A DNA stretch of 64,000 bases from Escherichia coli (lineage in GTDB: Bacteria > Pseudomonadota > Gammaproteobacteria > Enterobacterales > Enterobacteriaceae), in NCBI RefSeq assembly GCF_022846255.1, contig NZ_AP025682.1; one strand, 5' to 3'. Positions 1 through 23,095 of the stretch are shown in pieces. The position numbers were made by a program, and so were the translations under genes. The first letter of the stretch is position 1. Each line of letters starts with the position of its first letter. The notes under the pieces are model-generated. The model did not search any database, was not told the DNA's origin, and was given only the letters and a program-made list of their open reading frames with translations.

Positions 1-918
1 CTCCACGTGCCAGTGGTTTCGGATTGCTGTGGCGAACTTCTCTGCGGTTAAATCAGCAGAACTGATATAATATCTGACCGTCATTTCTGGCTATTTCTTT
101 TGTTCTGCTATTATGGACCGAAAGGAGACTGCCACGCATAATTTCTTCAGTCCTTTCCATTCAAACGTGAAATCAATAAGTTCATCAGGGACATCGCAAA
201 CAATATGAAGACGGATTTCTTCTCTGCCGTGACTTTTTTCACTAATTGCGTAACTGTCATGCTCTGGATTATTCAATTCTTTCAGCGGAAATTTTTCCTC
301 GAAGGCTTTATTTAGCCGCCCCTGGTTTCCTTTTACAGCGAATAAATAATCACCTCCCTGTTTTTGTATCTTCTCTGCAATATCTTTCTGGCAACCCATC
401 GCATCAGTTGTGATGATTTTTCCTTTAATATCCAGCATGTTAAGAAGTTCAGGGATAGCTGTAATTTCATTGGATTTCTCATCCGTCCTGATCTGTCCGA
501 TGACCAGACTGTGCATTGTTGAGAACGCACTAATGACATGAATCGCTCCCCTGCGGCGACTCTTGTCATAAGAATGTCGGAGCGTTTTTCCATCAATTGC
601 AATAACGTCTTTATCATCTGAAGAATGGCAGTCACGCATCCAGTTAATAAAGCACTCGTGAAATTTTGCAGGACTGATACAGGATACAACTCTGGCAATG
701 GTATCGTGAACAGGAATACCATTTTCAAAATCACCATATTGCTTCAAAAAATCGAGATGTGTTTCCCCAAAATCCTCTATATCTTCCCAGCCTTCTGCAC
801 CAGAAATAACGGCACAAATAGTCAACAGTAGAATATCCGATAATTTATGTTCCACTTTCCAGGCTTGTCTGTAATCGGGGATAATAGAAATATGTTCCAT
901 CAATTTTTTAAGTACCAT
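1..918 (-). mobile_element. ISAs1-family (H-repeat-associated) transposase gene, disrupted: in-frame TAG at 91-93, homologous reading frame continues to the window edge
   Basis: 275-aa [29 protein letters not shown]... matches the N-terminal three-quarters of E. coli H-repeat/ISAs1 transposases. Reverse-complement of 1-90 continues in frame as [30 protein letters not shown] after the stop. Confidence 0.7.
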
Positions 919-1147: not shown

Positions 1148-1468
1148 TTACTGTGACGTTATGCGCCCCGGACCACCGGCAGCAAGCGACGCCGCCGCAT
1201 CCTGAACTGCACCAGCCATATCCGAGATCCCTGCTGCTGCAGCGGCAGCCTGCGCAGCAGCTACTGCTGCTTTAACCAGACCTGACGGTTCCGGCAACGC
1301 ACCAAACAGGTCCGCCGCTGCCTGTTCTGCCATCTCCTCGGCGGCACCAGATACATCGGTTACGGCTGAACCTGTGCTCATACCGCCACTTTCGCCAGCT
1401 ATTGGTGGTGTGGTGATGACGGGTCCACCGTTTCCAGCTGGTTTGTTACCCGTAGATACAAAACTCAT
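1148..1468 (-). CDS. hypothetical small Ala/Gly-rich protein (106 aa), no recognisable domain
   Basis: ORF with an AGGA-containing putative RBS upstream of the ATG; low-complexity A/G-rich translation; GC-rich relative to AT-rich flanks; lies just downstream of a putative immunity gene. Confidence 0.3.
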
Positions 1469-1492
1469 GATATTTATTCCTTTAATATCGGA

Positions 1493-2601: not shown

Positions 2602-2801
2602 CTCCTTATATTGCTATATATCCAATAAACCTGAAGATGCTTGCTTACCCACCAACGCAGACGGGACCAAGGGTAGCCTGAAGTCAACAGATAGCAGTCA
2701 ACTTGAAGTTCATGGGGATATTTGTTTCCCCATCTACACGTTTATCGTCATATTTTTGTATAGCTATTCTCAGCATTCGTGGGTAGATTATTTTTTTCCA
2801 A

Positions 2802-2906
2802 CCGCAGCGCATCCACATACCGCCCCTCGCTGTTCTGCTGCCACAACCAGCCCTGCCCCTGCTGCGCCTGCGTTAACATTTTTGCTAGCCAGCACGGTCA
2901 CGGCAG
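2802..2906 (-). repeat. degenerate ~105-bp copy of the 3' end of tagF (direct repeat of 3902-4007)
   Basis: Read by eye: ccgcagcgcatccacataccgcccctcgctgttctgctgccacaaccagccctgcccctgctgcgcctgcg... aligns with 3902-4007 at roughly 90% identity; the copy lacks the tagF stop context and sits between two effector/immunity modules. Confidence 0.8.
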
Positions 2907-2924
2907 GCAATTCCATGACAGGTA

Positions 2925-3398
2925 CTACTCATCCGTACAACCCAGCCCCCGGCGCTGAACCACTTCACTGGCAAACGTAGCTCCGGTTTTTTTCATTATT
3001 CCTTTTTGTATTTTTTGCAGCGCGGGAAATGAGATTCTCCTGCATGAATCCTCTTCCCATATATCACCAGTTACAGGACTAACTGAAAATAGTCCCCACA
3101 CATCTGTCGCTCCGGCGGAAGGAGAATCATAACCTACCCCAAAACTAAAATACCCAGGATGATACAGGTTACCTTTTTTATCTTTCAGAGAACCGTCAAG
3201 AAAAAACCCAGACAATTCCACATTATATTTTTCATTTTTTAGTGAAAAAACCAATAATGCCTGCGCCTGTATTTCAGTAAGACCTGACTGGTTAACAGTC
3301 GTTAGATCAAACCGCGGCACATTCCTGATAAGAATTTCAGCACAACAATTCACGGACACGACCATGAAAAGCAATACTGATATTAATTTACAGGACAT
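2925..3398 (-). CDS. putative periplasmic immunity protein (signal peptide) for the upstream GH73-like protein
   Basis: N-terminal signal-like segment MSCKLISVLLFMVVSVNCCA; overlaps the upstream gene by 16 nt; no recognised domain. Confidence 0.4.
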   Translation of the reverse strand: MSCKLISVLLFMVVSVNCCAEILIRNVPRFDLTTVNQSGLTEIQAQALLVFSLKNEKYNVELSGFFLDGSLKDKKGNLYHPGYFSFGVGYDSPSAGATDVWGLFSVSPVTGDIWEEDSCRRISFPALQKIQKGIMKKTGATFASEVVQRRGLGCTDE

Positions 3399-3853
3399 GT
3401 TATTCTCCGCTTAACCATATTAATCACCCACACTAACTCACTAGCATAACCGGTATGGCCGCCATTACTGTTTTTACCTGAATTAAAACCAGAATCAATC
3501 AATGCCTGCGCAAATTGCTCCGGAGATTTTTTATTTCTGACCGCATTACCAAATCGGATTGCAAAGGACTTTCCGCTAGTTGAAAAAAAGGTATAAGTGG
3601 CAACCCACACTTGATTACTCCCCAGCGGGTGAACCTGTCCTGACTGTAAAGGTGCCGGACCATGCATGGAAAAGTAGTTATTGTATTCTGTCGCGATTCT
3701 ACCCTGCCCGTAAAAGGACTCCTTTGCAGCAAGCCCCAGGATATTTTCCACAGGCACATCAAGTTGCTTAGCGATTAATTCACATTCTTTCAGATATTGC
3801 TGTACAAACCTGACTGCACCAGTGTTATTACAGGCTTTATCATAAGACCCCAT
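3383..3853 (-). CDS. GH73-like (FlgJ-type) N-acetylglucosaminidase-like protein, candidate peptidoglycan-targeting T6SS effector
   Basis: 156 aa, no signal peptide, RBS AAGGAG; motif LGLAAKESFYGQG...YNNYFSMHG resembles the GH73 catalytic region (AQAALESGWG...NNLFGIK) recalled from memory; immediately downstream of tagF. Confidence 0.45.
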   Translation of the reverse strand: MGSYDKACNNTGAVRFVQQYLKECELIAKQLDVPVENILGLAAKESFYGQGRIATEYNNYFSMHGPAPLQSGQVHPLGSNQVWVATYTFFSTSGKSFAIRFGNAVRNKKSPEQFAQALIDSGFNSGKNSNGGHTGYASELVWVINMVKRRITCPVN

Positions 3854-3880
3854 GATTCACTACTCCTTGTCTGATTATTT

Positions 3881-4651
3881 TTAATGCGGCCGGATATCCA
3901 GCCGCAACGCATCCACATACCGCCCCTCGCTGTTCTGCTGCCAGAACCAGCCCTGCCCCTGCTGCGCCTGCGTCAGCATTTTGTCCGGCCAGCCCGGCCA
4001 CGGCAGGTGGCGCACACCGGGCAGTTCCACTACCGGCACGTCCGGCAGGCCGGTGAGTTCCCGGCTACGCTGCGGTACACGTCGTAAGCCGCGTAGCCAC
4101 TGCGCCCAGCGCGGCCCCGGTCGCCACATCGCCCAGAGCTGGTCTGTCTGCTCCGCCAGTCGACCGCAGCGTTCTGTCTGTGGTGAGACATGAGCTGCCG
4201 TCAACTGCGCCAGCCAGTACAGCCAGCCCTGTGTGTCATCCAGGCTCTCTTCCAGCCATTCCCGCCCGACACGCTGGTAAATCACCAGTGGCCACGGCCT
4301 GCCCGTACTGTCACGCGAGGCGGTCAGGACCCCGGTCAGCCACTCATCGCGCCCGCCAATGGGGAGAAATCCCGGCGACAGCACAAAACTCCACGGCAAT
4401 GGGTGGTGCTCCGGTAGTGCCGTTTTCTCACGTGGTGACAGGTGCATCCAGCCGTCATTTGTTCCGGCCTTCGCAGCATCCGTTCCTTCCGGCAGAACAA
4501 TATGCCGTCCCTGTCCCAGCCACGTTTGCTGGTTCAGCCACGCCTGCCACACCTGCCCTTCGTTCGCGCTCACTCGCCAGCGCACATAGTCCCGCTGGTC
4601 CGGCAGTCTGCCGAACATCGCCGGGGCCGATATCTCTGCCCGGCGCATCAC
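3881..4651 (-). CDS. tagF: T6SS-associated protein TagF (ImpM family)
   Basis: N-terminal FGRLPDQRDYVRW matches the TagF signature (FGKLPxxGDFVxR); W-rich, GC-rich ORF downstream of the tssM/tae4 block. True start may be the internal Met of AMFGRLP. Confidence 0.6.
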   Translation of the reverse strand: MMRRAEISAPAMFGRLPDQRDYVRWRVSANEGQVWQAWLNQQTWLGQGRHIVLPEGTDAAKAGTNDGWMHLSPREKTALPEHHPLPWSFVLSPGFLPIGGRDEWLTGVLTASRDSTGRPWPLVIYQRVGREWLEESLDDTQGWLYWLAQLTAAHVSPQTERCGRLAEQTDQLWAMWRPGPRWAQWLRGLRRVPQRSRELTGLPDVPVVELPGVRHLPWPGWPDKMLTQAQQGQGWFWQQNSEGRYVDALRLDIRPH

Positions 4652-4836
4652 AACGTCCTTACCGGACAGGTGAAGTTTTTCAGCAATTCCCGGTAATACA
4701 GAACATAATTCTTCATTTCAATAATAAAGTCAGATATCAGGATTAATTTTCTTCCACAGGAATCAGAGCATTTATAATAAAATCGCTCAGGCATCCCCCC
4801 AACAAAGAGAACAGGAATCAGCTTCCAATAAAATTG

Positions 4837-5313
4837 TTAATTCAGTTCCCAGAACCAGATTTCCTTGCAGCTAAAATAGCAATGTGAATGACATATAGCA
4901 CCTGTGGTAGAAGGCTCAATAAGATCTATATGACCGCCACCGTAACCCGTAATTTTCCAGAAAAAGACCACTCCTCTTTTATTACTGGTGTCTGTTTTAA
5001 ATTTTTCTGAGTCACACCAGATAACTGGTCTTCCAAAAACATCAGCTCGGGAAAGCTGATCTGCCAGTAATTTCGCACCGGTTTCTATTTTCTTCCCTTT
5101 CCAGTCACCACTTTTGATCGTCAGTCGCCCGTTAAAGCTGACGCCTGATTTAATCAGCGCCAGACTCATACGTGTGGCACAGGTATTTACATAACCAGCA
5201 TTTTGCTGTTGCAGTGCTTCATAGTTATAACCCACTTCACTGTACAAAACATCACCATCAATCTGAACTGATGAGTAATGGTTTTTTTTAAGTGTGAAAA
5301 ATGAAGGTTTCAT
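4837..5313 (-). CDS. tae4: Tae4-family peptidoglycan amidase effector
   Basis: 158 aa; motif NTCATRMSLALIKSG matches the Tae4 catalytic Cys region (NACPIRMSYVLN) and GGGHIDL the His region, by recall of Salmonella/Enterobacter Tae4; no signal peptide; start overlaps the stop of the upstream signal-peptide gene. Confidence 0.65.
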   Translation of the reverse strand: MKPSFFTLKKNHYSSVQIDGDVLYSEVGYNYEALQQQNAGYVNTCATRMSLALIKSGVSFNGRLTIKSGDWKGKKIETGAKLLADQLSRADVFGRPVIWCDSEKFKTDTSNKRGVVFFWKITGYGGGHIDLIEPSTTGAICHSHCYFSCKEIWFWELN

Positions 5314-6251: not shown

Positions 6252-9200
6252 TCACAGCGCTCGCTCCGGGCAGGCGAAGCGTTGTAATAGTCCGCGATCC
6301 ACTGGGTCAAAATCCCGTCCGGCGGTGATTTCCAGTATCACCCGCCGCCCGTCAAAGCTGTACTCCACCTGCTGTGTTCCCCGTACCGCCGTTTCTTGCG
6401 CTTTTCCCGCATCCAGCAGGTGAAACAGCGCCCACGGTCCATTAGTCAGCAGCGTCGAGGTGTCCTGGCGGATGCGCGGGCTGGCGGTTATTTCCGCCAT
6501 TGAGCCGTTGCGCGGACCCGGCCAGTTCACTTTCAGCGGCCTGACCGGGCCGTGAGCGTAACGCAGTACCTGGCCGTCAATGTCAATCACCAGTTCGGTG
6601 ATGGCCGGGTCCATATCCACGACGCGGACCTGCATCGCCCATGAGAACTTTTTCCCTCCGTCGCCGTTAAAAAACACGCTGCGGATCTGTTTCGCCTCCT
6701 GAAACGGCGTCAGGTCTGGACCCTGTAAGGTCATGTTGCCTTCGGTCGGTTTGTAGCGCCACGGGTTGCTGGCGGTATCCGCCAGTGGGGCCAGTTGCTT
6801 CGTCCAGAAGGCATCCAGCACGCCGCCGCTGGCAAAGATACGGTTAAAATCGTCCGCGCTGACCTCCTGCGGGCTGTCGGTGAAGGGGTAGCGCCCGTCG
6901 ATGGCGTCGCGGCACTCATCACCGATCACCGCCTCCATCTGCGCGTTCAGCACTTCACCGGTGCCGGCGTTGATTTTTCGCGTTCCCTGCTGCGTGAGAT
7001 CCAGCAGAATATTTTTCAGCGGCGCGGGCAGTTTTGCCGCCTCCAGTTGCAGTTTATCCGCCGCAGAAATGCGCCCCGGCAGAGTGCTCGCAGCCAGCGC
7101 ACTGTCGGCAATGGTGAGCTGGGTGTAGTACTCATTGAGCATCGTCAGCAGCGAATTTAATTGCGGCACGCCGCCGCCCTGCCCGCTGTCCGTCTGCCCG
7201 GAAACCACTTCCCGCAGGGCGGCGAAACGGTCATCCACCAGTGATTTTTCCAGCCGCTCTTCCGGGTGAATGTCCTGCAACAGCTTCGCCGTCTGCACCG
7301 CTTTTCCCGCATTGCCGGAGAGCCGGTCCTGCGCGCGCTGGGCCATCTGCTTTTGTCTGGCCTGCGCATTCAGCGGCGGCACCAGCGTGGTCTGCTCCAC
7401 CACCGCTTTACTCAGGCGCATCAGCGGGGAATCCGGCGAGGCCAGAGTACGCAGCACCTGAAGGTCATACGCTAGTCCAGGGCTACCGTCCTCCCCGGCG
7501 CTGTTGATGCTGTGAATGCTTGCCAGAAAATCCTGCCATCGGCGAGCATATTCAGCCAGGTACAGACGACGTACCTCACGGGTAACCGGGAGTTCCTGCC
7601 CCGGCAACTGGCTCATCACAATATCAGTCGTTTTTTTTTGCGCACTTTCCCGGCCCATCACCCAGGCGTCGTCCGCTGATGCGGCGGCGACAAACTCCGA
7701 CAGCCGTTTGTCGAACAGTTCCCGGTAGCCTTCGCGGGTGAAGATGCCGGGCACGCCCCTGTCCAGCGGCGCGCCATCCGTGCGGACAAAAACTGTTCCC
7801 GCATCCGCGCCCACAGCGCGAACCAGCGAAAACTCCTGCGGTGCTTCGCTCTCCATGGAAGCCAGGGCTCGAGTGTAGATACGCTCAGTGCTGGTATGGC
7901 CGTCAAGGAAGGCCCGCGCCTGGCGGATCAGCCCCTCATCTTTTTCCCAGGGCGAATGCACCACGCGGCTGCCGTCAAACAGGGCGTCAATATGCTCCAG
8001 CACGGCTGCGCGACCGCCAAACTCCGCTACGCTGTCGCGGTTGTCCAGATCGTTCAGCACCCAGGCGTGGATCTCCGCCGCGTTGTATTTGTCCTCGTGG
8101 TCCTTATCGAGGTTCAGCAGCAGATAAACATGCAGGGCGTCATAGGCGGCTTTGCTGTCCTGACGCGCAATCGCATCTGAAAGCACGTATTCCATTCGTT
8201 TCACCAGCGGAGGGAGCAGTAGCTGGTCCAGCAGGCGGTCATACAGGGATGCGACACTCTCCATCACCGGCGGGACGCTGTAAAGACCATAACGCCAGGC
8301 CAGCGGCGGCGAGTCCGGGTCCAGCCCCGGCCAGGCAGAGAGCGCCCGCGCCTGGTTCAGCAGGGCCGGAACAGGCTGCATAGCAGGTTTTCCGGTATAG
8401 GCTTTGACATCACCATCCAGTTGGGTCGTCCGGCTGGCGATTTCATTCAGATAACCGCTGTTACCCTGCTGGCTACCCTGCATTCCCTGCCACAACCAGA
8501 AAGCCAGCGCCAATACCAGCAGATGCCCGCCGGTACGCAGCAGGCGATAACGCCAGGCCCATTGAAGATTCGGCTCCACCAGGTGCGCTTCGCGGAAGAT
8601 AAACTGCGTCAGTAGATCGTGCAGGAAATAGCTGCGGTTGCCGTCCGGCAGGGTATGGGATGGGGAATCCGCCTTCCCTTTGATCGCCCGGACAAAACGC
8701 TGCCAGATGCCCGTCTGATCGGCCACCGCGTCTGCCTGCGCCTGCGCGGCACTGGTGAAAAATACGCCGCGCAGGGTGTTGTTAAGCTGGGTAGCATCAA
8801 ATTTTGAATCGAGGAAAATCTGTTCAATAGCTTCCAGCAGCGGCGCACCCAGCGCGGCAAATTCACGCGGGAAGCGGTAGAGCCGCTGACGGCTTTTAAG
8901 GTCATATTCTTCCTGCAACCGGGTATCCAGCCCCTGATCCAGCCGCTGTGTCAGGTTTGCCAGTTCCCGGCCACAGAGCGCATGCAGCGACTGCGGATCG
9001 CTGGCGTGACGCCTGCGGCTGTAAGGCAGGGTGAAGCCCCAGACCTGGGCTCGCAGGTGACTGGTCAACCCACGGAAATACTCCGTAAAGCCCGGCAGCA
9101 GATCCATCTTGGTGACAACCAGATAGACCGGAAAACGAATGCCCAGCGTCTCCCGCAGTTCCGCCAGCCGCGCACGCAGAGCTGCACAGGCAGCCAGCCG

Positions 9201-10118
9201 TTCCGCCGGGGACTGCGCGGTCAGATCCGCCACGTTCAGCGTCAGGATCACGCCGTTGAGCGGTGCGCCGGGGCGGTGTTTACGCAGCAGTCCCAGAAAC
9301 CCCTGCCACTCCCCGGCGTTGCGCTGGGTCGCGCTGATTTCGCCACCGTCATCGTGGCGAGCATAGCGCCCGGCGGTGTCAATAAGCACTGCTTCGTTGG
9401 TAAACCACCAGTCGCAGTGCAGCGTGCCGCCGCCCGGCACGGTGAGAATATGCGCGGTTTGCTCCATCTGCTCCGCCAGCGGAAACTGTAGCCCGGTGTT
9501 AAGCAGCGCGGTGGTTTTACCATCGCCGGGGCTGCCGATAACCATAAACCACGGCAGCTCGTACAGAAAACGCTTTCCTTCCAGGACTTTTCGCCAGCCA
9601 GGAAGATCCACACGCAGTTGTTTCAGTTGCCGGATGGCGCGGTTGACAATATGGCTGACGGTACGCAGGTCGGCTTTAATTTCCCCCTCCACCGGTACGT
9701 CTTCCCCACGCGGATGCAGGAAACGGCGCAGCAGTTGTTCATCCAGACGCAGCGCCCGCCACAGCCGGTACAGGCCATACAGCGCATAAGTCAGCAGGAT
9801 CAGACCGATAAGCGTCAGACGCAGCCACAGCGGCGCAAATGGATGAACATCACCGAGGGACAGCAGGGGTGAAACAAAACCGATGACCAGGCACAGAACC
9901 GTCACGCCAATGATGCTCATCGACCAGTTAACCAGCCACAGTGCGAGGAACATCAGTAACAGAACGATGGTGACTACCCGACTTCCCACAGACGCGAGCG
10001 GATGCACGGTGTCAAACGCCACCAGCGGCCCGATAAACCAGACCAGCAGCGCCAGTACCGCCACGCCGACAACAGCCAGCGCGCGGCGGGAAAACAGCAG
10101 ACTGAGAAATTTTTGCAT
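6252..10118 (-). CDS. tssM: T6SS membrane core protein TssM (IcmF family)
   Basis: 1288 aa; N-terminal transmembrane segments, Walker A GSPGDGKTT, large periplasmic C-terminal region; typical IcmF architecture. Confidence 0.9.
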   Translation of the reverse strand: MQKFLSLLFSRRALAVVGVAVLALLVWFIGPLVAFDTVHPLASVGSRVVTIVLLLMFLALWLVNWSMSIIGVTVLCLVIGFVSPLLSLGDVHPFAPLWLRLTLIGLILLTYALYGLYRLWRALRLDEQLLRRFLHPRGEDVPVEGEIKADLRTVSHIVNRAIRQLKQLRVDLPGWRKVLEGKRFLYELPWFMVIGSPGDGKTTALLNTGLQFPLAEQMEQTAHILTVPGGGTLHCDWWFTNEAVLIDTAGRYARHDDGGEISATQRNAGEWQGFLGLLRKHRPGAPLNGVILTLNVADLTAQSPAERLAACAALRARLAELRETLGIRFPVYLVVTKMDLLPGFTEYFRGLTSHLRAQVWGFTLPYSRRRHASDPQSLHALCGRELANLTQRLDQGLDTRLQEEYDLKSRQRLYRFPREFAALGAPLLEAIEQIFLDSKFDATQLNNTLRGVFFTSAAQAQADAVADQTGIWQRFVRAIKGKADSPSHTLPDGNRSYFLHDLLTQFIFREAHLVEPNLQWAWRYRLLRTGGHLLVLALAFWLWQGMQGSQQGNSGYLNEIASRTTQLDGDVKAYTGKPAMQPVPALLNQARALSAWPGLDPDSPPLAWRYGLYSVPPVMESVASLYDRLLDQLLLPPLVKRMEYVLSDAIARQDSKAAYDALHVYLLLNLDKDHEDKYNAAEIHAWVLNDLDNRDSVAEFGGRAAVLEHIDALFDGSRVVHSPWEKDEGLIRQARAFLDGHTSTERIYTRALASMESEAPQEFSLVRAVGADAGTVFVRTDGAPLDRGVPGIFTREGYRELFDKRLSEFVAAASADDAWVMGRESAQKKTTDIVMSQLPGQELPVTREVRRLYLAEYARRWQDFLASIHSINSAGEDGSPGLAYDLQVLRTLASPDSPLMRLSKAVVEQTTLVPPLNAQARQKQMAQRAQDRLSGNAGKAVQTAKLLQDIHPEERLEKSLVDDRFAALREVVSGQTDSGQGGGVPQLNSLLTMLNEYYTQLTIADSALAASTLPGRISAADKLQLEAAKLPAPLKNILLDLTQQGTRKINAGTGEVLNAQMEAVIGDECRDAIDGRYPFTDSPQEVSADDFNRIFASGGVLDAFWTKQLAPLADTASNPWRYKPTEGNMTLQGPDLTPFQEAKQIRSVFFNGDGGKKFSWAMQVRVVDMDPAITELVIDIDGQVLRYAHGPVRPLKVNWPGPRNGSMAEITASPRIRQDTSTLLTNGPWALFHLLDAGKAQETAVRGTQQVEYSFDGRRVILEITAGRDFDPVDRGLLQRFACPERAL

Positions 10119-10445: not shown

Positions 10446-10901
10446 TCAAAATTCTCTGGATAGAATAATATAGCCATTGAATCTTACGGAACACTCATTT
10501 TCATTAATAAGGCCGGATGCAATAAAAACATCTTTCCCTCTGTCATTGTTAATATAGGTATATTTTGCCACAATAGACTTGGCATGATTTTCATAGTAGC
10601 TATCAAAATACGATTTTTCATCTAACATTGCCTTCTTATTTCTGGCTTTGTCCTTCTCATAATCAATCTTAGCCAGAGACTCTGCATAAAACTTAGACAC
10701 AGGAGAAACATCAAGAACTTCTACCCTTGTTTTATCTCTTAAAATAGTAGAAGAATTTATATTCAAATCACTTTTCATTGCATCAAATAACGACAACTCT
10801 ATTGAGGCTCCAACCGTAGCGCAACCATCATTTTGTGCATATGAAATTGCAGGTATGCCAGCTAACAGGCAGATTATTACCTTGAACATATTAGTCCTCA
10901 A
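10446..10901 (-). CDS. putative periplasmic immunity protein (Tldi-like) for the upstream L,D-transpeptidase-like effector
   Basis: 151 aa with signal peptide MRTNMFKVIICLLAGIPAISYA; AT-rich; overlaps the effector gene end by 11 nt. Confidence 0.45.
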   Translation of the reverse strand: MRTNMFKVIICLLAGIPAISYAQNDGCATVGASIELSLFDAMKSDLNINSSTILRDKTRVEVLDVSPVSKFYAESLAKIDYEKDKARNKKAMLDEKSYFDSYYENHAKSIVAKYTYINNDRGKDVFIASGLINENECSVRFNGYIILSREF

Positions 10902-11259
10902 CCACTAATATTTTATCAGTACTGGCAGCAATAACCTTGCGATAAGGTAAATCCAGAATTATACAGCCATCAGAGGCTTCTCCTGGATGGGCTGAACTCT
11001 CTCCGTGTATCATGAAACCGTCACGCCCGCACATTTGATTTTCGGGGTAAGGCGTGAGCCTCATCGTCCATGCTCTTGTTCTGGCATGAAAAAATGCAAG
11101 TCCAATTGTATATGTACCTCTTGGCAATGGTCCCTTATCTCTTACACACTCATTAACAGAGTCATCTTTAAAACCCGGTCTGCCAGAATATCTGGCATTG
11201 AACTGATAGCTACCATTTAAATAAAATGAACGTGCATTAATTTTGTATACCCAAGGCAT
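10891..11259 (-). CDS. Tlde1-like (DUF2778, L,D-transpeptidase-fold) T6SS effector
   Basis: 122 aa; motifs KGPLPRGTYTIG and FMIHGESSAHPGEASDGCIIL match the His-x(14-17)-S-x-G-C signature described for Tlde1/YkuD-like effectors; no signal peptide. Confidence 0.55.
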   Translation of the reverse strand: MPWVYKINARSFYLNGSYQFNARYSGRPGFKDDSVNECVRDKGPLPRGTYTIGLAFFHARTRAWTMRLTPYPENQMCGRDGFMIHGESSAHPGEASDGCIILDLPYRKVIAASTDKILVVED

Positions 11260-11350: not shown

Positions 11351-12667
11351 TCACTCCACCACCAGAATTTCCACCCGACGGTTCTGCGCCCGTCCGGTTT
11401 TAGTGCGGTTATCGGTCACCGGTACGGTATCTCCTTTCCCGACAACCCGGATCCGGCGGGCCGGAATACCATCGGACGTCAGCAGTGAAGCCACTTCCGC
11501 CGCCCGTTTTTCCGACAATACCTGGTTGGACGGGAATTCAGCGGAGTGGATCGGCTGGCTGTCCGTGTGGCCGGTCACCGTCACCGCGCCCCCCACACGC
11601 GCAATCTCACGCGCGGCCTTGTCAATCACCGGGCGCAGCGCATCATTCACGGTTTTCTGCCCCGGTATAAACATCGTATCGCCACGAAAAATTACACGGC
11701 TGTGATGGTCATCTTCCTCCACCGTCAGCAGGCCACGGGCGATTTCGTTCGCCAGCAGGATTTTCAACCGCAGTTTATGCACCGGAACGGGTGGCGGAGG
11801 AAGATTTTTACCAATGGCGTCGATACGCTGTTGTACGGTTTCGGTGGCGAGGTTCATCCGGTGGCTGTAAAGGCCAAACAGCGTCAGCATCACCAGCAGG
11901 GCGATTCCGGCGCTCAGCCAGACCGGCACCCGGCGCATCCGCCGCATTCGCCCACTGACGGCACCGGCAAAACCCGGCGAGAGCGTCGGCGTGATCGGAT
12001 CGCGACGCTGGACCAGTTGAGTCAGCAGTTGCTGGCGGATATCGTCCAGTTGTTTACGCCCGTCAGGCCGTACACTGTAGCGGCCTTCAAAACCCAGTCC
12101 CAGAATGTGGTAAATGATTTCCAGTACATCGCTGTGCTCCTGGAAGCTGGCGGCCAGACGCCCGATTATCTGAAACAGCTTGATGCCGCCTTCACTTTCG
12201 CCATGAAAAGTCACCAGCAGGCTCTTCCCGGCCCAGACACCGCGTCGCCCCCAGACGGTGTTGTTGGCAGCTTCATCCAGCGCCGTGCACACGCAGTAAC
12301 GTACCGCCAGCACATGTTCGCGGCGCAGGTTTGCCTGGTCGCACAGCGTCTGATACCGGCGGACTTCACGCTCCAGTAGGGCGCGATAATGTTCGACAAA
12401 ACCAGGGGAAAGTTCACGGGGCATTTGCGCCAGCGCGCATAACAGAGGGCTGGCCGCCGCCAGAAGAGGATTCACAGCAGCAGTGATCTCAGCCAAGCGG
12501 AGCTTCAAATCTGGCCCGTCTTCAACCACCATTTTTATATCTTCCCTGCGAAGGCTGTCCTGGACGAGCGTATCGTAACCGTCATTATCAGGCGACCTTG
12601 TTCCCCTCATTGAAGGCTGTAATTGCAGGGTATTCACCGCAGGTTGCGTCAGAATATCGTCGGTCAT
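11351..12667 (-). CDS. tssL: TssL (DotU family) with C-terminal OmpA-like peptidoglycan-binding domain
   Basis: 438 aa; DotU-like N-terminal region, one transmembrane segment (VWLSAGIALLVMLTLFGLY), C-terminal OmpA/MotB-like motif GHTDSQ...NRRVEILV. Confidence 0.8.
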   Translation of the reverse strand: MTDDILTQPAVNTLQLQPSMRGTRSPDNDGYDTLVQDSLRREDIKMVVEDGPDLKLRLAEITAAVNPLLAAASPLLCALAQMPRELSPGFVEHYRALLEREVRRYQTLCDQANLRREHVLAVRYCVCTALDEAANNTVWGRRGVWAGKSLLVTFHGESEGGIKLFQIIGRLAASFQEHSDVLEIIYHILGLGFEGRYSVRPDGRKQLDDIRQQLLTQLVQRRDPITPTLSPGFAGAVSGRMRRMRRVPVWLSAGIALLVMLTLFGLYSHRMNLATETVQQRIDAIGKNLPPPPVPVHKLRLKILLANEIARGLLTVEEDDHHSRVIFRGDTMFIPGQKTVNDALRPVIDKAAREIARVGGAVTVTGHTDSQPIHSAEFPSNQVLSEKRAAEVASLLTSDGIPARRIRVVGKGDTVPVTDNRTKTGRAQNRRVEILVVE

Positions 12668-14007
12668 TTATCGCGAACTCCCCACAGCTCCAGCTCCAGC
12701 CCTGGAAACTCTCCGGCGGTATGCATTGCCATGCCACCATAGCGGGCGATATGTTCCCACAACACGCCGTCGCGGCGGATGTCGTAATAGATGTAACCGG
12801 ACTGGAACGGGATCTGACGCGGTGGCACTGGCAGCACCTGTAGAACAAGACCAGGAAGGTGCGAGCGAATCAGTTCCGGCAGGCGTTCTGATGGCCCTAT
12901 TTTGGTCTGAGCCGAAAAATGTTGTAGTAAGGTGTCGGCGGACATCTGTGCCTTCACCGCCAATACTAACGAGCTGAAATCTGACAGTTCGGTAGGTTCA
13001 ACCACCGCATTGAGAATACCGTAAGTTCCCTCTTCCAGAGGGATTCGCTGCGCCCCACGTATTAGCACAGCATTCAGCAGATACTGAACCTCGTCCACCA
13101 CCGATTTCAGCCCGGCATAGGGCGTCAGGTGCTTATATTCTTTATATTCTTCCGGACGACGTGTTTGCGGACGCACGTAGGTAGAGAGTTCTCCGGCCAG
13201 TGCGCAGAGGTTACGATAGAGTACTTCAGGCGATAGCGGCGTTTTCGACATATGGATCAATAAGGGGCCGAAACGATTAAGAACTTGCAGAAGCAGGTAA
13301 TCCGACACTTCCGCCGCTTCATGACCGTGTTTGTCGCTCCCCGTCAATCGTTCCGCCAGCGAATCTGCACGCATTTTTATCAGATCGTTAATCCACGACA
13401 GCCAGGTACATATCAGCGTACTGGCCTGGTAGTTCGCCACTGGCGGGATCAACTCTTTGTCTATATCGACCCGACCATCGGGATGCAGCGCCGTGATGCG
13501 CGTCAGCGGCAGGCCGATCCACGCGTCTGTCACCGCCTTTTCCGGTAACAGTCGCAAGCGCAGGTGGCTAAGTTGCAGCAGTTGCGCGCCTCGCCCCAGC
13601 GAATTGGCATCACGGATTTCACTTTCATGTACCGAAAAACGTGCCAGTGATTCAGGGTTATTGTCGAAACTGGTTTCTTCACTGTTCGGCGTACGTATTG
13701 GCACAGCCAGATAAATCAACTGGTTAAGATGTTCTGGAAGGATGGTCAGAGGCGGCGGGAGTGGTGTATGACCCGGCGCATTAAAAGGTGTACCGTCAGC
13801 AAATACCCCGGAAGCCTTCGTAAGTACCAGTTTTCCGATGTTCAGCGCCTCACTACCAATACCATACTCATTGAAGCCCCAGTAAAAAGGTGAAAGAGGC
13901 AAACTGCGATAATGAATGACATGTTCCAGATAGCGTTCCTGCTGCTGAAACATCTGTGGCAACAAAAATTGTCCTTCACTCCAGACCACCCGGTTATTCC
14001 AACTCAT
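12664..14007 (-). CDS. tssK: T6SS baseplate protein TssK
   Basis: 447 aa; N-terminus MSWNNRVVWSEGQFLLPQMFQQQERY typical of TssK; 4-nt overlap with tssL. Confidence 0.85.
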   Translation of the reverse strand: MSWNNRVVWSEGQFLLPQMFQQQERYLEHVIHYRSLPLSPFYWGFNEYGIGSEALNIGKLVLTKASGVFADGTPFNAPGHTPLPPPLTILPEHLNQLIYLAVPIRTPNSEETSFDNNPESLARFSVHESEIRDANSLGRGAQLLQLSHLRLRLLPEKAVTDAWIGLPLTRITALHPDGRVDIDKELIPPVANYQASTLICTWLSWINDLIKMRADSLAERLTGSDKHGHEAAEVSDYLLLQVLNRFGPLLIHMSKTPLSPEVLYRNLCALAGELSTYVRPQTRRPEEYKEYKHLTPYAGLKSVVDEVQYLLNAVLIRGAQRIPLEEGTYGILNAVVEPTELSDFSSLVLAVKAQMSADTLLQHFSAQTKIGPSERLPELIRSHLPGLVLQVLPVPPRQIPFQSGYIYYDIRRDGVLWEHIARYGGMAMHTAGEFPGLELELWGVRDK

Positions 14008-14010
14008 AAT

Positions 14011-14565
14011 TTACTCATCCCGTTCTTTAATCACTATGGCGCTTTGCTCTATGCCAGCATCCAGTTCGACTTTTTTCTTTGGCATAAAGCGGCTGTACCA
14101 ACTTTTTTCCGGTGGATCAGGAATTTTATATGTAGCCCGCCAGACCGATTTTCCCAGATTGCGGTATCCGGCGAGGATCCCCAGCGTGGTAGTTTCCTTA
14201 TTGAGGGCGCGGCGTAATTTTTTCTCCTCGCCCGGACGCAGGATAAAGCTGTCGCGGTGGAGTAAATCATCGGCAAGAACAGCCTTGTCATTGTCCTGAA
14301 GGGACCACCAGTCCGCCGCCGTGAAAGCTGCATCAATTTTCAGTTCATAAACGCGTATCTCTATGGGCGCGGCTTTTTTCTGATTGTCAGGATTCACCTT
14401 ATCGGAAGCCTTAATCACCAGATCGAGTCTTTGTGACATCAGGTCCGGCACGTCGTCGCTGTCAATGCTGCACCCGGAAAGCAGGAAGACAAAAGACAAA
14501 GCTACCGCACATAACCACCCACCGGGGTTACGCCATTTATTCACTGTAATTTCCTTTAAAATCAA
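14011..14565 (-). CDS. tssJ: T6SS outer-membrane lipoprotein TssJ
   Basis: 184 aa; lipobox LLSGC after a signal-like segment; size and position (between hcp and tssK) typical of TssJ/SciN. Confidence 0.75.
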   Translation of the reverse strand: MILKEITVNKWRNPGGWLCAVALSFVFLLSGCSIDSDDVPDLMSQRLDLVIKASDKVNPDNQKKAAPIEIRVYELKIDAAFTAADWWSLQDNDKAVLADDLLHRDSFILRPGEEKKLRRALNKETTTLGILAGYRNLGKSVWRATYKIPDPPEKSWYSRFMPKKKVELDAGIEQSAIVIKERDE

Positions 14566-14611: not shown

Positions 14612-15103
14612 TTAAATTTCTTTGTTAGCTTTGAAATCGTAACCTGCCGTGATAGTGCCGCCGCTGCCGCCCTGCTGGTTCTGCACCACGTATTCCTGCT
14701 TCACGGTGCTGAAAGATAGTTCGACTCTCTCGCGGGAGGCGATCTCACCCTCCTTACTACCACTGGGGGAAACAACAGCCACAATCAGGTCAGTGAAGGT
14801 ATATTTGAGGTATTCCAGCGGATTGCCGCCTGCTTTGCGCATGACAAGGATGGACTTCGGAATATGCTTACCAGAGGCGCAGTATTTGAACAGGTTCGGG
14901 CTAGCGCGATCGATGTAATGTTCAAACTCCAGGTTAGTCACGGAGACTTTGCCGGATCCCAGACCGCTACCTGCGTGCATGGTGGACTCCTGGTGGATAT
15001 TCCAGCGCCAGCTCAGCACCTCAATTTCATTTTTATGTTTGTCATCCATTGACTCGCCGTCAATGCCGTCAATTTTCAGAAAAATGTCATAAGCCATTTT
15101 CAT
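14612..15103 (-). CDS. hcp: Hcp (TssD) tube protein
   Basis: 163 aa; AYDIFLKIDGIDGES...LSWRWNIHQ is the characteristic Hcp N-terminus; start may be the third codon (MAYD). Confidence 0.85.
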   Translation of the reverse strand: MKMAYDIFLKIDGIDGESMDDKHKNEIEVLSWRWNIHQESTMHAGSGLGSGKVSVTNLEFEHYIDRASPNLFKYCASGKHIPKSILVMRKAGGNPLEYLKYTFTDLIVAVVSPSGSKEGEIASRERVELSFSTVKQEYVVQNQQGGSGGTITAGYDFKANKEI

Positions 15104-16199: not shown

Positions 16200-17714
16200 T
16201 CAGGCATTACCCTGTTTTACTGACGGCAGTTTTGTCACCAGACGCAGTGATCCTGTTAACCCTTCAAGCTGAAAATGCGGGCGCAGGAAGAATTTGGCGT
16301 CGTAATAGCCCGGATTCCCCTCCACCTCTTCCACCACCACTTCAGCAGCTGCCAGCGGGCGACGAGCTTTGGTTTCCTGTGAGGAGTTCACCGGATCGGC
16401 ATCGACGTAGTTCATGATCCACTCATTGAGCCAGCGCTGCATATCTTCGCGCTCTTTGAACGAGCCGATCTTGTCGCGCACGATACATTTGAGGAAGTGC
16501 GCAAACCGTGAGCAGGCGAAAAGATATGGCAAACGAGCTGAGAGATTGGCGTTGGCCGTAGCATCCGGATCGTAATACTCCTGCGGTTTTTGTAGAGACT
16601 GCGCGCCAATAAAGGCGGCGTAATCAGAGTTTTTGCGGTGGATAAGTGGGATAAAACCATTTTTCGCCAGTTCAGCTTCACGACGGTCAGAGATGGCAAT
16701 TTCTGTCGGGCATTTCATATCCACGCCGCCGTCATCGGTCGGGAAGGTATGACAGGGCAGATTTTCCACCGCGCCACCAGATTCAACACCGCGGATCAAC
16801 GTACACCAACCGTAATGTTTGAAAGAGCGGTTGATATTTACACCCATTGCATAGGCGGCATTGCTCCAGACATATTTGCTGTGATCTGCGCCATCCGCAT
16901 CTTCTTCAAAATCAAACTCATCGACAGGGTTTGTTTTCGCACCATAAGGCAAACGGGAGAGAAAACGTGGCATCGTCAGGCCAATGTAGCGAGAATCCTC
17001 ACTTTTTCGCAGCGAGTTCCACGGTGCGTATTCGAGGTTTTGGGTCACAATTTTGGTCAGATCACGCGGGTTAGCCAGTTCCTGCCAGGAATCCATCTGC
17101 AACACTGATGGAGAGGCCCCAGCAATAAACGGCGCATGGGCTGAGGCTGCCACTTTGGCAATGGAGCCGAGCAGATCCACATCCGGTGGCGTGTGATCAA
17201 AATAATAATCCGCAATAATACAACCGTAAGGTTCTCCGCCTAACTGCCCATATTCGGCTTCATACAGCTTTTTGAACATGGGGCTTTGATCCCACGCGAT
17301 CCCTTTGTAACGCTTCATATTTTTCCGCAATTCATCCTTCGAAAGGTTCATAAAGCGGATTTTTAATTTTTCATCGGTTTCGGTGTTGTAAACCAAATGT
17401 TCCATCCCACGCCAGGAGGACTCCAGTTTCTGAAATTCCGGATGATTCAGGATTAGTTTGATCTGCTCAGTTAATTTGAAATCGATCTGCTCAATAATTG
17501 CAGCAATACTTTTATAAGCATCATCACTAACAGTGATCGTATTTGTCAGAGCCTGTTGGGCCAGCGTCTGAACTGCCGCCTCAACAGCCTTTGCAGCCTG
17601 AGGAGTCTTGGGACGGAAAGCTTTATCCAGCAGCGAATCAAATTCCGTTTCCTGATAGGCAGTGGTTTGCGCAGCAGAGAGGTCGCCAGTCGCCAGAAGA
17701 GTATCGTTTACCAT
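16200..17714 (-). CDS. tssC: T6SS sheath large subunit TssC
   Basis: 504 aa; highly conserved TssC/VipB-like sequence throughout. Confidence 0.9.
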   Translation of the reverse strand: MVNDTLLATGDLSAAQTTAYQETEFDSLLDKAFRPKTPQAAKAVEAAVQTLAQQALTNTITVSDDAYKSIAAIIEQIDFKLTEQIKLILNHPEFQKLESSWRGMEHLVYNTETDEKLKIRFMNLSKDELRKNMKRYKGIAWDQSPMFKKLYEAEYGQLGGEPYGCIIADYYFDHTPPDVDLLGSIAKVAASAHAPFIAGASPSVLQMDSWQELANPRDLTKIVTQNLEYAPWNSLRKSEDSRYIGLTMPRFLSRLPYGAKTNPVDEFDFEEDADGADHSKYVWSNAAYAMGVNINRSFKHYGWCTLIRGVESGGAVENLPCHTFPTDDGGVDMKCPTEIAISDRREAELAKNGFIPLIHRKNSDYAAFIGAQSLQKPQEYYDPDATANANLSARLPYLFACSRFAHFLKCIVRDKIGSFKEREDMQRWLNEWIMNYVDADPVNSSQETKARRPLAAAEVVVEEVEGNPGYYDAKFFLRPHFQLEGLTGSLRLVTKLPSVKQGNA

Positions 17715-17738: not shown

Positions 17739-18284
17739 TTAGTCTGCTGTTCCCGTTTCACCTGATAAGACACTTTCCTGTTGAGCGACAGGTTTTGGCG
17801 CGCTGGCCAGAGCTTTCAGTAACGTCGGGTCTTGTAATAGTTTGTTGATCAGATTTTCTGCTCCCGCTTTACCATCCATGTAGGTTTGCAGGTTGGCAAG
17901 CTGAGTACGTGCTTCCAGCAGCTGGTTCAGGGCATCCACCTTACGGGCAATCTGCGCAGGCGAGAAATCGTCCATATTCTCCAGCGTGATATCGACCATC
18001 AACTGCCCTTCGCCCGTCAGCGTATTGGGGACAGCAAACGCCACGCGCGGCGCAATGGCTTTCATCCTCTCGTTGAAGTTATCGATATCAATATCAAGGA
18101 ATTTACGATCGGTGACCGGCGGCAGCTCTTCACGCGGTTTACCCGCCAGGTCGGCCAGCACCGCCATGACAAACGGCAGTTCGATTTTTTTCTCGGAGCC
18201 GTAAATCTCAACGTCATACTCAATCTGCACGCGGGGCGCGCGGTTGCGGGCAATAAACTTCTGCGCGCTGTTGTTGATAGCCAT
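17739..18284 (-). CDS. tssB: T6SS sheath small subunit TssB
   Basis: 181 aa; APRVQIEYDVEIYGSEKKIELPFVMAVLADL is the TssB/VipA signature. Confidence 0.9.
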   Translation of the reverse strand: MAINNSAQKFIARNRAPRVQIEYDVEIYGSEKKIELPFVMAVLADLAGKPREELPPVTDRKFLDIDIDNFNERMKAIAPRVAFAVPNTLTGEGQLMVDITLENMDDFSPAQIARKVDALNQLLEARTQLANLQTYMDGKAGAENLINKLLQDPTLLKALASAPKPVAQQESVLSGETGTAD

Positions 18285-19214: not shown

Positions 19215-21848
19215 TTAATCCGTGTCAAAAATAATCTGTTCATCCTCATCAACACGAATGCGGATTTGCGTGATGGCCGTTTTCTCTGTCATCGCCTGCA
19301 GCCAATAACGGGACAGTTGTGGGAGGATATGTTGTTCGATATAGCCGATGAGCAAACGAGCGCCGGTTTCGTGCATCGGGCAGCGCGACACAATATGCGT
19401 AATCAGTTCATCGCCATACACCAGTGAAACGCCATGCTGCTCCGCCATCCGATCCATCAATCTGCCAAGATGCAGGCGGGCAATAACACCACGCGCGGTC
19501 TCATCCAGCGGTAAATAAGGAATAACCGTCACACGCCCCAGGAAAGCCGCCGGGAAGTGTTTACGTAACTCCGGCATTAACGCCTCTTTTAACCCTGCCG
19601 AATCGGGCATCAGCGCCGGATCCTCACAGAGCTGGCTGATAAGTTCCGCCCCCGCGTTAGTCGTCAACAACAGCGTGGTATTTTTGAAATCGATGTGGAC
19701 ACCTTCGCCATCTTCCATCGCCCCCTTATCAAACACCTGGAAGAACAGCTCGTGGACGTCGTGATGGGCTTTTTCAATTTCATCCAGCAATACCACGCTC
19801 CAGGGATGGCGGCGTACCGCTTCCGTCAACACGCCGCCTTCGCCATAGCCGACGTAGCCGGGCGGCGCGCCTTTCAGAGTGGAGACTGTGTGAGACTCTT
19901 GATACTCGCTCATGTTGATGGTGATCAGATTCTGTTCACCGCCATAGATTGCTTCTGCCAGTGCCAGCGCGGTCTCAGTCTTGCCTACTCCGGACGGCCC
20001 GGCCAGCAAAAAGACACCCACTGGCTTACGCGGGTCACCTAAACCCGCCCGCGCGGTCTGGATACGCTCGCCAATCTGCGCCAACGCATCCATCTGCCCG
20101 GTAACACGCTGCGCCAAACGGGTGGGCAATTCCAGTATCTGACTGGCTTCATCTTTCACCATCCGTCCGGCGGGAATACCGGTCCAGTCGGAGACAATCT
20201 CTGCCACCACGGTTGCACTGACTTCCGGGTACACGACGGGGTTTTCACCCTGCCAGCCTCTTAATGCCGTTTCTGCCTGTTGTAGAGTGATTTCGTCGCG
20301 CTCGCCAGGCGCTGCGCCGCGTTGCTCCTGTAAACTGCGAACCAACTCCAGTTCCTGCTGCCACCGCGCTTCGGTGTCAGAAAGATCGGCATTAAGCGAT
20401 ATAATCCGCGCCGTCAGTACATCGCCCCGCTCCGAGCGGATACCCATTTTTTCCTGCTTTAATAACAACTCCTGCTCCAGTTCGGCAGCGTTGAGCTGCT
20501 GGCGCAGATACTGGACTCTCGCAGGCGGGGTATGCAGCGACAGCGCTACACGGGCCGCCGCCGTATCCAGCAGGCTGATGGCCTTATCCGGTAGTTGCCG
20601 GGCCGGAATGTAACGGTGAGAAAGCTGTACAGCGGCGCGCACGGCCTCATCAAGAATCAGGACATCATGGTGTTCTTCAAGCGTGGTGACTAATCCGCGC
20701 ACCATCTCAACAGCCGCAACCTCTTCCGGCTCAGCAACCTGCAATACCTGAAAACGCCGGGTCAGCGCCGGATCCTTTTCGATATGGCGTTTGTACTCGC
20801 TCCAGGTGGTTGCGCCGATGGTGCGCAGAGTGCCACGCGCCAGCGCCGGTTTCAGCAGGTTGGCAGCATCCCCCGTACCGGATGTACCACCAGCGCCCAC
20901 CAGGGTGTGAACTTCATCAACAAAAAGTATCACCGGCTGCGCCGAGCGCGCGGCCTCTTCCAGCAAAGCTTTCAGGCGGGATTCAAATTCACCCTTCATG
21001 GACGCCCCAGCCAGCAGCGCTCCAACATCCAGTGACAGCAACCGCACGTTACGCAGTGAAGGCGGCACTTCCCCCCCGGCAATCGCCAGCGCGAATCCTT
21101 CCACCACTGCCGTTTTCCCGACCCCCGCCTCGCCGGTCAGCAGCGGATTGTTCTGGCGACGGCGCAGCAGAATATCCGTCATAGTACGGATCTCGTGTTC
21201 GCGTCCGGTGACCGGATCGATATTGCCTTCACGGGCCAGCGCAGTCATGTCCTGGCAGTATTTCGCCAGCGCGGATTTACTTCCGGTTGATTCGCCGGCA
21301 AAGACCTGGCTAGCTTCCCCCGGTACTGCAAAATTTAAATCCGAGCCGTCATAAGGTATTTCTGTTAATTCAGGAGATGAAGCGATTAAAGACGGAAGAA
21401 TATCTAATAGTTCATCTACCGGTAGCCCTGCCAATGGCGCACAGATATTTTTTAACACCCGATACAATTCTGGCGTGGTTAACCAGGCAAGTAATAACCA
21501 TCCACTACGAATTTTTTGATCACCAAAGCGGATACTTGCCAACATCCAGGCTTTTTCAACAGAAAGATCGATATGATGGGAAAAATCGTTAATTACACTC
21601 GCTCCGGCAGGCAATATATTCAATTGCTGAATTAACGCCTTCTCAACATCAGCAGATGTTATTTGATAATGTCGAAGCACATTGTGAATGTCATTCTCTG
21701 GTTGTTGTATTAACTGATGCAACCAATGCGTCAGTTCGACATAAGGATTAGCGCGTAATTTACAGAACGTCGTCGCAGATTCCAAAGATCTAAACAAAGA
21801 TTTGGTTAGCTTTCCATACAGTGCACTGCGCGAAACAGGAGTGTCCAT
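19215..21848 (-). CDS. clpV: ClpV (TssH) AAA+ ATPase
   Basis: 877 aa; two Walker A motifs (GEAGVGKTA, GPSGVGKTE); ClpB-like without middle-domain extension. Confidence 0.9.
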   Translation of the reverse strand: MDTPVSRSALYGKLTKSLFRSLESATTFCKLRANPYVELTHWLHQLIQQPENDIHNVLRHYQITSADVEKALIQQLNILPAGASVINDFSHHIDLSVEKAWMLASIRFGDQKIRSGWLLLAWLTTPELYRVLKNICAPLAGLPVDELLDILPSLIASSPELTEIPYDGSDLNFAVPGEASQVFAGESTGSKSALAKYCQDMTALAREGNIDPVTGREHEIRTMTDILLRRRQNNPLLTGEAGVGKTAVVEGFALAIAGGEVPPSLRNVRLLSLDVGALLAGASMKGEFESRLKALLEEAARSAQPVILFVDEVHTLVGAGGTSGTGDAANLLKPALARGTLRTIGATTWSEYKRHIEKDPALTRRFQVLQVAEPEEVAAVEMVRGLVTTLEEHHDVLILDEAVRAAVQLSHRYIPARQLPDKAISLLDTAAARVALSLHTPPARVQYLRQQLNAAELEQELLLKQEKMGIRSERGDVLTARIISLNADLSDTEARWQQELELVRSLQEQRGAAPGERDEITLQQAETALRGWQGENPVVYPEVSATVVAEIVSDWTGIPAGRMVKDEASQILELPTRLAQRVTGQMDALAQIGERIQTARAGLGDPRKPVGVFLLAGPSGVGKTETALALAEAIYGGEQNLITINMSEYQESHTVSTLKGAPPGYVGYGEGGVLTEAVRRHPWSVVLLDEIEKAHHDVHELFFQVFDKGAMEDGEGVHIDFKNTTLLLTTNAGAELISQLCEDPALMPDSAGLKEALMPELRKHFPAAFLGRVTVIPYLPLDETARGVIARLHLGRLMDRMAEQHGVSLVYGDELITHIVSRCPMHETGARLLIGYIEQHILPQLSRYWLQAMTEKTAITQIRIRVDEDEQIIFDTD

Positions 21849-22180: not shown

Positions 22181-23095
22181 ATGAAACCAAATATTACGTG
22201 GGGACTCCAAAAAATACAGGCGCACGGGATCGCCGATAACACAATTTACGCGACTGAAGGAACCCAAATTATCTTCACCGTTACCTCACCCTGGATTCCT
22301 GTTTTTGAGGTGAATGATGATGTAAAGATTGCCCTCAGTCTGACCCGCCACGAAGAAGCATGGTGGATTATCAATCAGTCTACCGAATATTGCTGTACGG
22401 TAAACGACCAGATTGTGGAACCTCATCACCGTATGCGTCTGAATGAAGGCGACCTGATAGAATGGGGGTTATCTTCATGGTGCCTTGTGCACGGCAATCC
22501 ATCATCTCCGGACCTGAGCGCAGTAAAAACGACATCGCAGACTGCCACCATGTCGGAAACAATAACCGAATATCTGGATCTGGATTGGTTCAGGCAGCAG
22601 CATCTGACATCACAAAATCCATTCGATATCATTCCTGTTCATGGAGCCTCCTCCACTGGAGAAGATGCTAAAAAAGAAAATGCCCTGACTCGACTTTATC
22701 AGGAATACCGCGAGGCGTTGTTATCTCCTGAACAAGATCTTCATCGCCATGCTGATCCTTTTCCTTTTAACGAAGAGCCCTCCTCACAGGATCTGGATTC
22801 ATTGCGTGATCTGGTCACTGAAGCCGAGACATTGCAGGATATGGTCACTGGCGGGTTAAGCATTGACGCTATTCTCGATGTCCTGGACGCCACCGGCGAA
22901 GGGGAAACCGCCTGGCCTGCCGAAAAGACACCCCCAGATATCCTGCACCTGCTATCCCCGGAATGCGCACCGGAAACAGCGCATAACACCGTTCTACCCG
23001 ACCTGACACGCAAAGAGCATCGCATCATTGGCATTGACAGCCATTATCGGATAAACCCGGCACAACACGGAGAGATATCTCATGACAAACAATAA
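22181..23095 (+). CDS. FHA-like domain protein (TagH/Fha-like T6SS accessory protein)
   Basis: 304 aa; N-terminal region loosely fits the FHA pattern (…SLTRHEEAWWI…TVNDQIV…LNEGDLIEWG); first gene of the plus-strand T6SS operon. Domain call is tentative. Confidence 0.4.
   Translation: MKPNITWGLQKIQAHGIADNTIYATEGTQIIFTVTSPWIPVFEVNDDVKIALSLTRHEEAWWIINQSTEYCCTVNDQIVEPHHRMRLNEGDLIEWGLSSWCLVHGNPSSPDLSAVKTTSQTATMSETITEYLDLDWFRQQHLTSQNPFDIIPVHGASSTGEDAKKENALTRLYQEYREALLSPEQDLHRHADPFPFNEEPSSQDLDSLRDLVTEAETLQDMVTGGLSIDAILDVLDATGEGETAWPAEKTPPDILHLLSPECAPETAHNTVLPDLTRKEHRIIGIDSHYRINPAQHGEISHDKQ

Follow-up and report, generated by a model that had tools for sequence, protein, structure and literature searches.

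Among the closest described relatives of the locus reported here is the Tge2PP-Tgi2PP pair of Pseudomonas protegens. The Tge2 and Tgi2 families were defined in 2013, with structure 4KT3 (Whitney et al. 2013, J Biol Chem 288:26616, as presented in citing reviews). This structure is an effector-immunity complex of the 1E:1I type (Whitney et al. 2013, per PMC4832377). In Salmonella enterica, Tge2/Tgi2 is an established module of variable region 2 (VR2) of the SPI-6 island and is found in 150-240 serotypes (PMC10469887; PMC12288458). A more distant parallel is Tge1 (Tse3/Tsi3 of P. aeruginosa), likewise a T6SS-delivered effector that cleaves glycan strands and has a periplasmic immunity protein (PMC4832377). 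Tge1 belongs to a different family, however, and PDB searches with the protein described below returned no match to Tse3. Tse3 is also much larger than Tge2.

The pair studied here lies within a 64,000-nt stretch of Escherichia coli DNA, referred to below as the window. A sequence-only reading of this DNA had presented its 156-aa member as a candidate new T6SS effector. The novelty is the part that fell: the Tge2/Tgi2 families, structure 4KT3, the Pfam entry PF21576, the RefSeq names and the Salmonella SPI-6 VR2 locus all pre-exist. The pair is of an already known kind, and the E. coli version is at most an uncharacterised orthologue rather than a new effector; no experiment on E. coli Tge2 or on the pair was found in the literature searched. 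The module is widespread in Salmonella but rare in E. coli, where 8 of 5,426 complete genomes have the allele of the window and a few others a diverged one.

Identity, fold and active site of the two proteins

A PDB sequence search with the 156-aa protein gave one strong match, chain A of 4KT3 (E=3.1e-45), which covers residues 6-153 of the 156. The family profile recovered the same chain with E=1.9e-71, and homologues of the effector fall into 45 database clusters at E<=1e-5. RefSeq entry WP_137501342.1 has exactly this sequence. The 157-aa protein in turn matched chain B of 4KT3, Tgi2PP (E=4.7e-36), over residues 34-157, that is, the whole mature protein, as well as Pfam PF21576, T6SS_Tgi2PP ("T6SS, Immunity protein Tgi2PP"; E=1.4e-13). 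With homologues of this strength for each (PDB E-values of 3e-45 and 5e-36), the two ORFs are not products of chance. The 156-aa protein is a member of Tge2 (T6SS glycoside hydrolase effector family 2) and, by the same kind of comparison, the 157-aa ORF is the cognate immunity family member, Tgi2. Nothing was found that speaks against this family membership. In complete E. coli genomes RefSeq names the two a "glucosaminidase domain-containing protein" and a "Tgi2PP family T6SS immunity protein"; NCBIfam release 20 yielded no HMM match for Tgi2, although RefSeq uses the family name. The adjacency of glucosaminidase and PF21576 genes is kept in a 58%-identical homologue that is sited outside any T6SS cluster.

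Both partners are homologous to Tge2PP and Tgi2PP over approximately their full mature length, with about 51% identity for the effector. The likeness extends to the fold, the catalytic Glu, the terminal Cys pair of the effector, two conserved Cys of the immunity protein and the order of the genes, effector then immunity. The two systems differ in host, Pseudomonas versus E. coli, and the E. coli pair is located inside a T6SS cluster, directly after tagF. Furthermore, the N-terminus of E. coli Tgi2 (VSVNCC) has no canonical lipobox, whereas 4KT3_B was deposited as a 'putative lipoprotein'.

The arrangement of the genes is that described in the sequence-only reading. Its two minus-strand ORFs overlap by 16 nt (3383-3398), the motif that it quoted is found at residues 38-65 of the 156-aa protein (ILGLAAKESFYGQGRIATEYNNYFSMHG), and the effector/immunity relationship that it proposed is borne out by the match of the two partners to the two chains of one complex and by PF21576. 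Signal-peptide calls for both proteins were made from hydropathy and inspection of the sequences. Tge2 has no hydrophobic segment at its N-terminus (maximum Kyte-Doolittle 11-residue mean of 0.57 in the first 30 windows). Tgi2, on the other hand, begins with MSCKLISVLLFMVVSVNCCAE, in which an n-region containing Lys precedes a hydrophobic core of 12 residues, with a Kyte-Doolittle maximum of 2.91 at residue 6. A leaderless effector and a partner with a signal sequence, as had been claimed, are indeed what is observed.

Each gene is preceded by a ribosome-binding motif: for tge2 this is AAGGAG, 9 nt before the ATG, and for tgi2 it is GGAG, likewise upstream of the ATG. Translation of the two overlapping ORFs is probably coupled. 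The pair begins 27 nt downstream of tagF. Because this leaves only 27 nt between the tagF stop and the tge2 start region, co-transcription of tge2-tgi2 with tssM-tagF is likely. Scanning the region from tagF to tgi2 for promoters and terminators gave chance-level results only.

The only significant Pfam domain in Tge2 is Glucosaminidase (PF01832; E=2.2e-7), which spans residues 27-147 and positions 7-121 of the 123 in the model. Structure prediction, the check that had been suggested for the GH73-like assignment, upholds it. An AlphaFold (AF2) model built on an alignment of 33 homologues (46-74% identity) reached a pLDDT of 93.7 and a pTM of 0.89. When this model was compared with the PDB using Foldseek, 4KT3_A came out on top (TM 0.86/0.95, 51% identity). 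It is followed by an unbroken series of GH73 enzymes, all with a probability of 1.00: FlgJ of Sphingomonas (2ZYC, 3K3T, 3VWO) and of Salmonella (5DN4, 5DN5), Listeria Auto (3FI7), S. aureus Atl (5T1Q), TM0633 (4QDN) and Enterococcus AtlA (7QFU). A model computed from the single sequence was discarded (pLDDT 44).

Glu45, the Glu of the ESFYG motif, is invariant in the alignment of 33 homologues, down to 46% identity. In the profile-to-PDB alignment its column falls on the Glu of the sequence AALETGWGK of FlgJ in 2ZYC, and on Ala in 3K3T, the deposited E185A mutant of FlgJ. Since it aligns in this way with the catalytic Glu185 of FlgJ, Glu45 corresponds to the catalytic acid of GH73 enzymes and is the predicted catalytic residue of Tge2. 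The earlier assignment of this Glu to the catalytic region agrees with the alignment. The other invariant residues are C8, N9, E36, G49, G51, R52, N58 and N59. No invariant second carboxylate occurs in the beta-hairpin region of the family in this alignment; the invariant E36 and the near-invariant E56 are candidates only for such a role. Cys8 is invariant and Cys153 at least 90% conserved, and both lie near the termini of Tge2. They probably form a disulfide once the protein is in the periplasm.

The T6SS cluster and its cargo

The T6SS setting that had been assumed for the pair is confirmed. The cluster occupies approximately 1.1-28.4 kb of the window, where TssA, B, C, E, F, G, H, J, K, L and M, Hcp, TagF and TagK are encoded (Table 1). 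Cargo and immunity proteins missed by NCBIfam were assigned from Pfam and PDB sequence searches. The NCBIfam HMMs gave no match for Tae4, Tai4 or Tlde1, although RefSeq uses such names.

Table 1. Location of the features discussed in the text; numbering starts at the first nucleotide of the window
Feature	Position	Strand	Description
ISEc1	1-1062		ISAs1-family insertion element
ISEc1 transposase ORF	91..918	minus	looks C-terminally short
vgrG 5' fragment	1060-1470		410 nt, abutted by ISEc1
HExxH protein and overlapping ORF	1493-2601	minus	246 aa; overlaps a 123-aa signal-peptide ORF
repeat copy A	2797..2907	minus	orphan remnant of the tagF 3' end, immediately downstream of tgi2; incomplete/truncated TagF pseudogene in RefSeq
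tgi2	2925..3398	minus	157 aa, ATG start, TAG stop; putative periplasmic immunity protein, N-terminal signal sequence at about 1-20
tge2	3383..3853	minus	156 aa, ATG start, TAA stop; T6SS peptidoglycan glycoside hydrolase effector, GH73 fold
Shine-Dalgarno of tge2	3863..3868	minus	AAGGAG, from sequence
tagF	3881..4651	minus	TIGR03373, E=1.2e-10, above cut-off; 'TagF domain-containing protein' in RefSeq; T6SS accessory gene
repeat copy B	3897..4007	minus	genuine 3' end of tagF
Tae4/Tai4 module	4837-6005	minus	inserted between tssM and tagF
Tae4	4837..5313	minus	Ssp1, 4BI3_A, E=1.7e-57
tssM	6252..10118	minus	TIGR03348, E=0, 1064 bits; core membrane subunit; start of the variable effector region
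Tlde1-domain protein and overlapping ORF	10446-11259	minus	between tssL and tssM
Tlde1-domain protein	10891..11259	minus	122 aa; PF10908, E=2.3e-12
tssL	11351..12667
tssK	12664..14007
tssJ	14011..14565
hcp	14612..15103
tssC	16200..17714
tssB	17739..18284
tssH/clpV	19215..21848
tagK	22181..23095
tssE	23909..24403
tssF	24419..26302
tssG	26299..27294
tssA-like	27305..28351
gap without ORF of at least 150 aa	36544-42311		about 5.8 kb

Other cargo surrounds the pair. The partner of Tae4 is a Rap1a-type Tai4 of 231 aa; in the other loci examined, tagF directly follows tssM, with no Tae4/Tai4 between them. The 122-aa Tlde1-domain protein overlaps a 151-aa ORF with a signal peptide, and the two are a probable L,D-transpeptidase-like effector pair of the Tlde1/Tldi1 type, to go by the Pfam match and the gene layout. 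The Tlde1-domain protein has the same size as a 122-aa VR2 candidate reported in Salmonella. On the other side of tge2-tgi2, the 246-aa protein carries a zinc-peptidase-like motif, HELGHIIGY, with weak Pfam matches to M64/M57. It is 48% identical to a 243-aa Salmonella protein at the same position, a class that has already been proposed as a VR2 candidate effector (Reprolysin_4/Peptidase_M64) and is uncharacterised. PDB searches with the Tlde1-like and HExxH neighbours gave no match. All cargo modules have a GC content of 37-42%, as compared with 65% for tagF and 61% for tssM. AT-rich cargo amid GC-rich core genes fits a picture of cassettes exchanged horizontally within a scaffold that is conserved. 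Further downstream, past the T6SS cluster and housekeeping genes, the gap at the end of Table 1 could be an rRNA operon.

Comparison with Salmonella SPI-6 reveals the same synteny, tssM-tagF-tge2-tgi2-(243/246-aa HExxH protein)-...-vgrG-DcrB-PAAR/Rhs. In the Salmonella genome the order reads tssM-tagF-Glucosaminidase(156 aa)-T6SS_Tgi2PP(153 aa)-243 aa-...-VgrG-DcrB-PAAR/Rhs, with corresponding protein lengths and 61-74% identity. The E. coli window differs by the presence of Tae4/Tai4 between tssM and tagF, and of Tlde1/Tldi1 between tssL and tssM.

Proposed action and alternatives

It is very probable that the locus, as an E. coli member of Tge2/Tgi2, specifies a T6SS-exported GH73 peptidoglycan hydrolase and its periplasmic immunity protein. 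Tge2, being cytoplasmic and leaderless, would be loaded onto the surrounding T6SS, exported by it and delivered by injection to the periplasm of an adjacent Gram-negative cell. It might travel either in the Hcp lumen or with VgrG; Hcp-borne delivery is plausible from its size of 17 kDa. In the target periplasm its GH73-type site, with Glu45 as the general acid, would hydrolyse the glycan backbone of peptidoglycan, as a predicted N-acetylglucosaminidase. This would weaken the wall and lyse the cell. Tgi2, exported to the producer's own periplasm by the Sec pathway, would bind Tge2 arriving from sister cells 1:1 and neutralise it. The active site would then be blocked as in 4KT3, where Tgi2PP reportedly occludes it.

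Two other readings concern the enzyme itself. That Tge2 is a housekeeping GH73 enzyme, FlgJ-like and flagellar or autolytic, which lies near T6SS genes by chance and next to an unrelated ORF, has a negligible probability. NCBIfam does give weak matches to FlgJ (E=6e-4) and GsmA, but the FlgJ model TIGR02541 scores 19.7 bits against a cut-off of 193 and aligns residues 11-59 with only positions 146-194 of its 294. The GH73 enzymes FlgJ (C-domain), Listeria Auto and S. aureus Atl share with Tge2 the fold, the position of the catalytic Glu and PF01832. Their identity to it is 15-23%, however, and they are Sec- or flagellar-exported housekeeping or autolytic proteins with extra domains. Tge2, in contrast, is a minimal single-domain toxin of 156 aa with a dedicated inhibitor, and it has neither the rod-binding N-domain of FlgJ nor a signal peptide. 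Moreover, its partner is a Tgi2PP family member, and within the T6SS cluster the two genes have tagF on one side and a remnant of tagF on the other. An identity as FlgJ or an autolysin was rejected on score and domain architecture, and is effectively refuted by the matches to 4KT3 and PF21576. A further variant, in which Tge2 keeps the GH73 fold but cuts a different bond, as a muramidase or a lytic transglycosylase, is unlikely. One review groups Tge1-3 as 'muramidase' (PMC4832377), and the absence of an invariant second carboxylate from the beta-hairpin region may be read the same way. Some resemblance to SLT_2 (E=0.13), and to goose-type lysozymes and MltE in structure, points in this direction too, but these matches are weak, the structural ones appearing only at E>0.1. 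After Tge2PP, the best structural neighbours are all GH73 glucosaminidases, Glucosaminidase is the only significant Pfam domain, and the Salmonella literature attributes a predicted N-acetylglucosaminidase activity to the protein (PMC10469887). Which bond is cut is a matter of prediction for the Tge2 family as a whole, too.

The third alternative leaves the identity of the proteins untouched and asks whether the cassette is used in this strain. ISEc1 abuts the 5' fragment of vgrG and cuts the vgrG of the cluster at approximately codon 137. This junction is found in 0 of 5,426 complete E. coli genomes, which marks it as a recent, strain-specific event. With the cluster vgrG interrupted, the T6SS may need a vgrG from another part of the genome in order to fire. 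It could be that the T6SS does not fire and the cassette is functionally silent, tge2 being an unused relic and tgi2 being kept as a defence against Tge2-armed neighbours. We consider this improbable. Both ORFs are intact, retain all family-invariant residues and have good ribosome-binding sites, and every other T6SS core gene is intact. The rest of vgrG may lie past the insertion element, outside the window, and extra vgrG genes elsewhere are common in E. coli genomes. In any case, silence of the cassette is compatible with its being a Tge2/Tgi2 pair.

A cassette between duplicated tagF ends

The tge2-tgi2 pair sits in a cassette of 1,100 bp, on either side of which a 111-nt stretch from the 3' end of tagF occurs as a direct repeat. 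The two copies, the genuine end of the gene and the orphan remnant, are identical at 100 of 111 positions. In E. coli 2014C-3338 the DNA to either side is collinear with that of the window (98.5% and 99.5% identity), but the cassette is missing and the repeat is present once, at 4001-4111 of its locus. This single copy is a hybrid: its variants are those of copy A over the 48 nt nearest the stop and those of copy B over the 34 nt farthest from it. A crossover inside the repeat would give exactly such a copy. This points to gain or loss of the cassette by homologous recombination between the repeats, as read from the sequences of the three copies.

The same arrangement recurs in other backgrounds. 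Strains 24A16CRGN010 and R32_14_1F have the cassette and the remnant in a different cluster background, and GF4-3 has both with a diverged allele. The tagF 3'-end repeat flanks the Salmonella cassette too, and a third, more degenerate copy of the tagF end occurs further downstream in Salmonella. In one of the loci compared (L005), tagF-end copies lie at 5884-5945, 6953-7014 and 8671-8719. In the E. coli window a search for a third copy, based on a 29-nt core with a tolerance of 3 mismatches, found none.

Duplicated gene ends are also observed at two further places. Just after tssM, where Tae4/Tai4 is inserted, the 5' region of tagF recurs in a degenerate form with gaps (4585-4675 versus 6199-6279), with an alignment score of 40 that exceeds the shuffle maximum of 24. 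In two E. coli genomes, a different two-gene module (702 nt + 387 nt), on the vgrG side of the island, has a copy of the vgrG 5' end to either side of it. These copies lie at 2824-3890 and 4920-5964 in one locus (L004) and at 1-300 and 2084-2383 in the other (L003), with a spacing of about 2.08 kb and 87-99% identity. Their presence suggests that the same remnant-leaving recombination has taken place there.

In a survey of Salmonella SPI-6, the idea of a recombination hot spot was judged to be unsupported because mobile elements were lacking, and tagF goes unmentioned there. We tentatively propose, at slightly less than even confidence, that tge2-tgi2 is a mobile cassette that moves by way of duplicated tagF 3' ends. 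Duplicated ends of core genes (tagF 3', the tagF 5'/tssM junction and vgrG 5') would, within the same proposal, be general and so far unremarked homology arms for effector turnover in the variable regions of enterobacterial T6SS.

For the pair itself, the finding has little consequence apart from an accurate annotation: the Tge2/Tgi2 module of Pseudomonas and Salmonella is present in a minority of E. coli strains. A single cluster holds four peptidoglycan-directed toxin modules, namely Tge2/Tgi2, Tae4/Tai4, Tlde1/Tldi1 and the HExxH candidate effector, and the repeat-flanked presence/absence polymorphism of one of them is a small, testable clue to the way in which effector islands are reshuffled.
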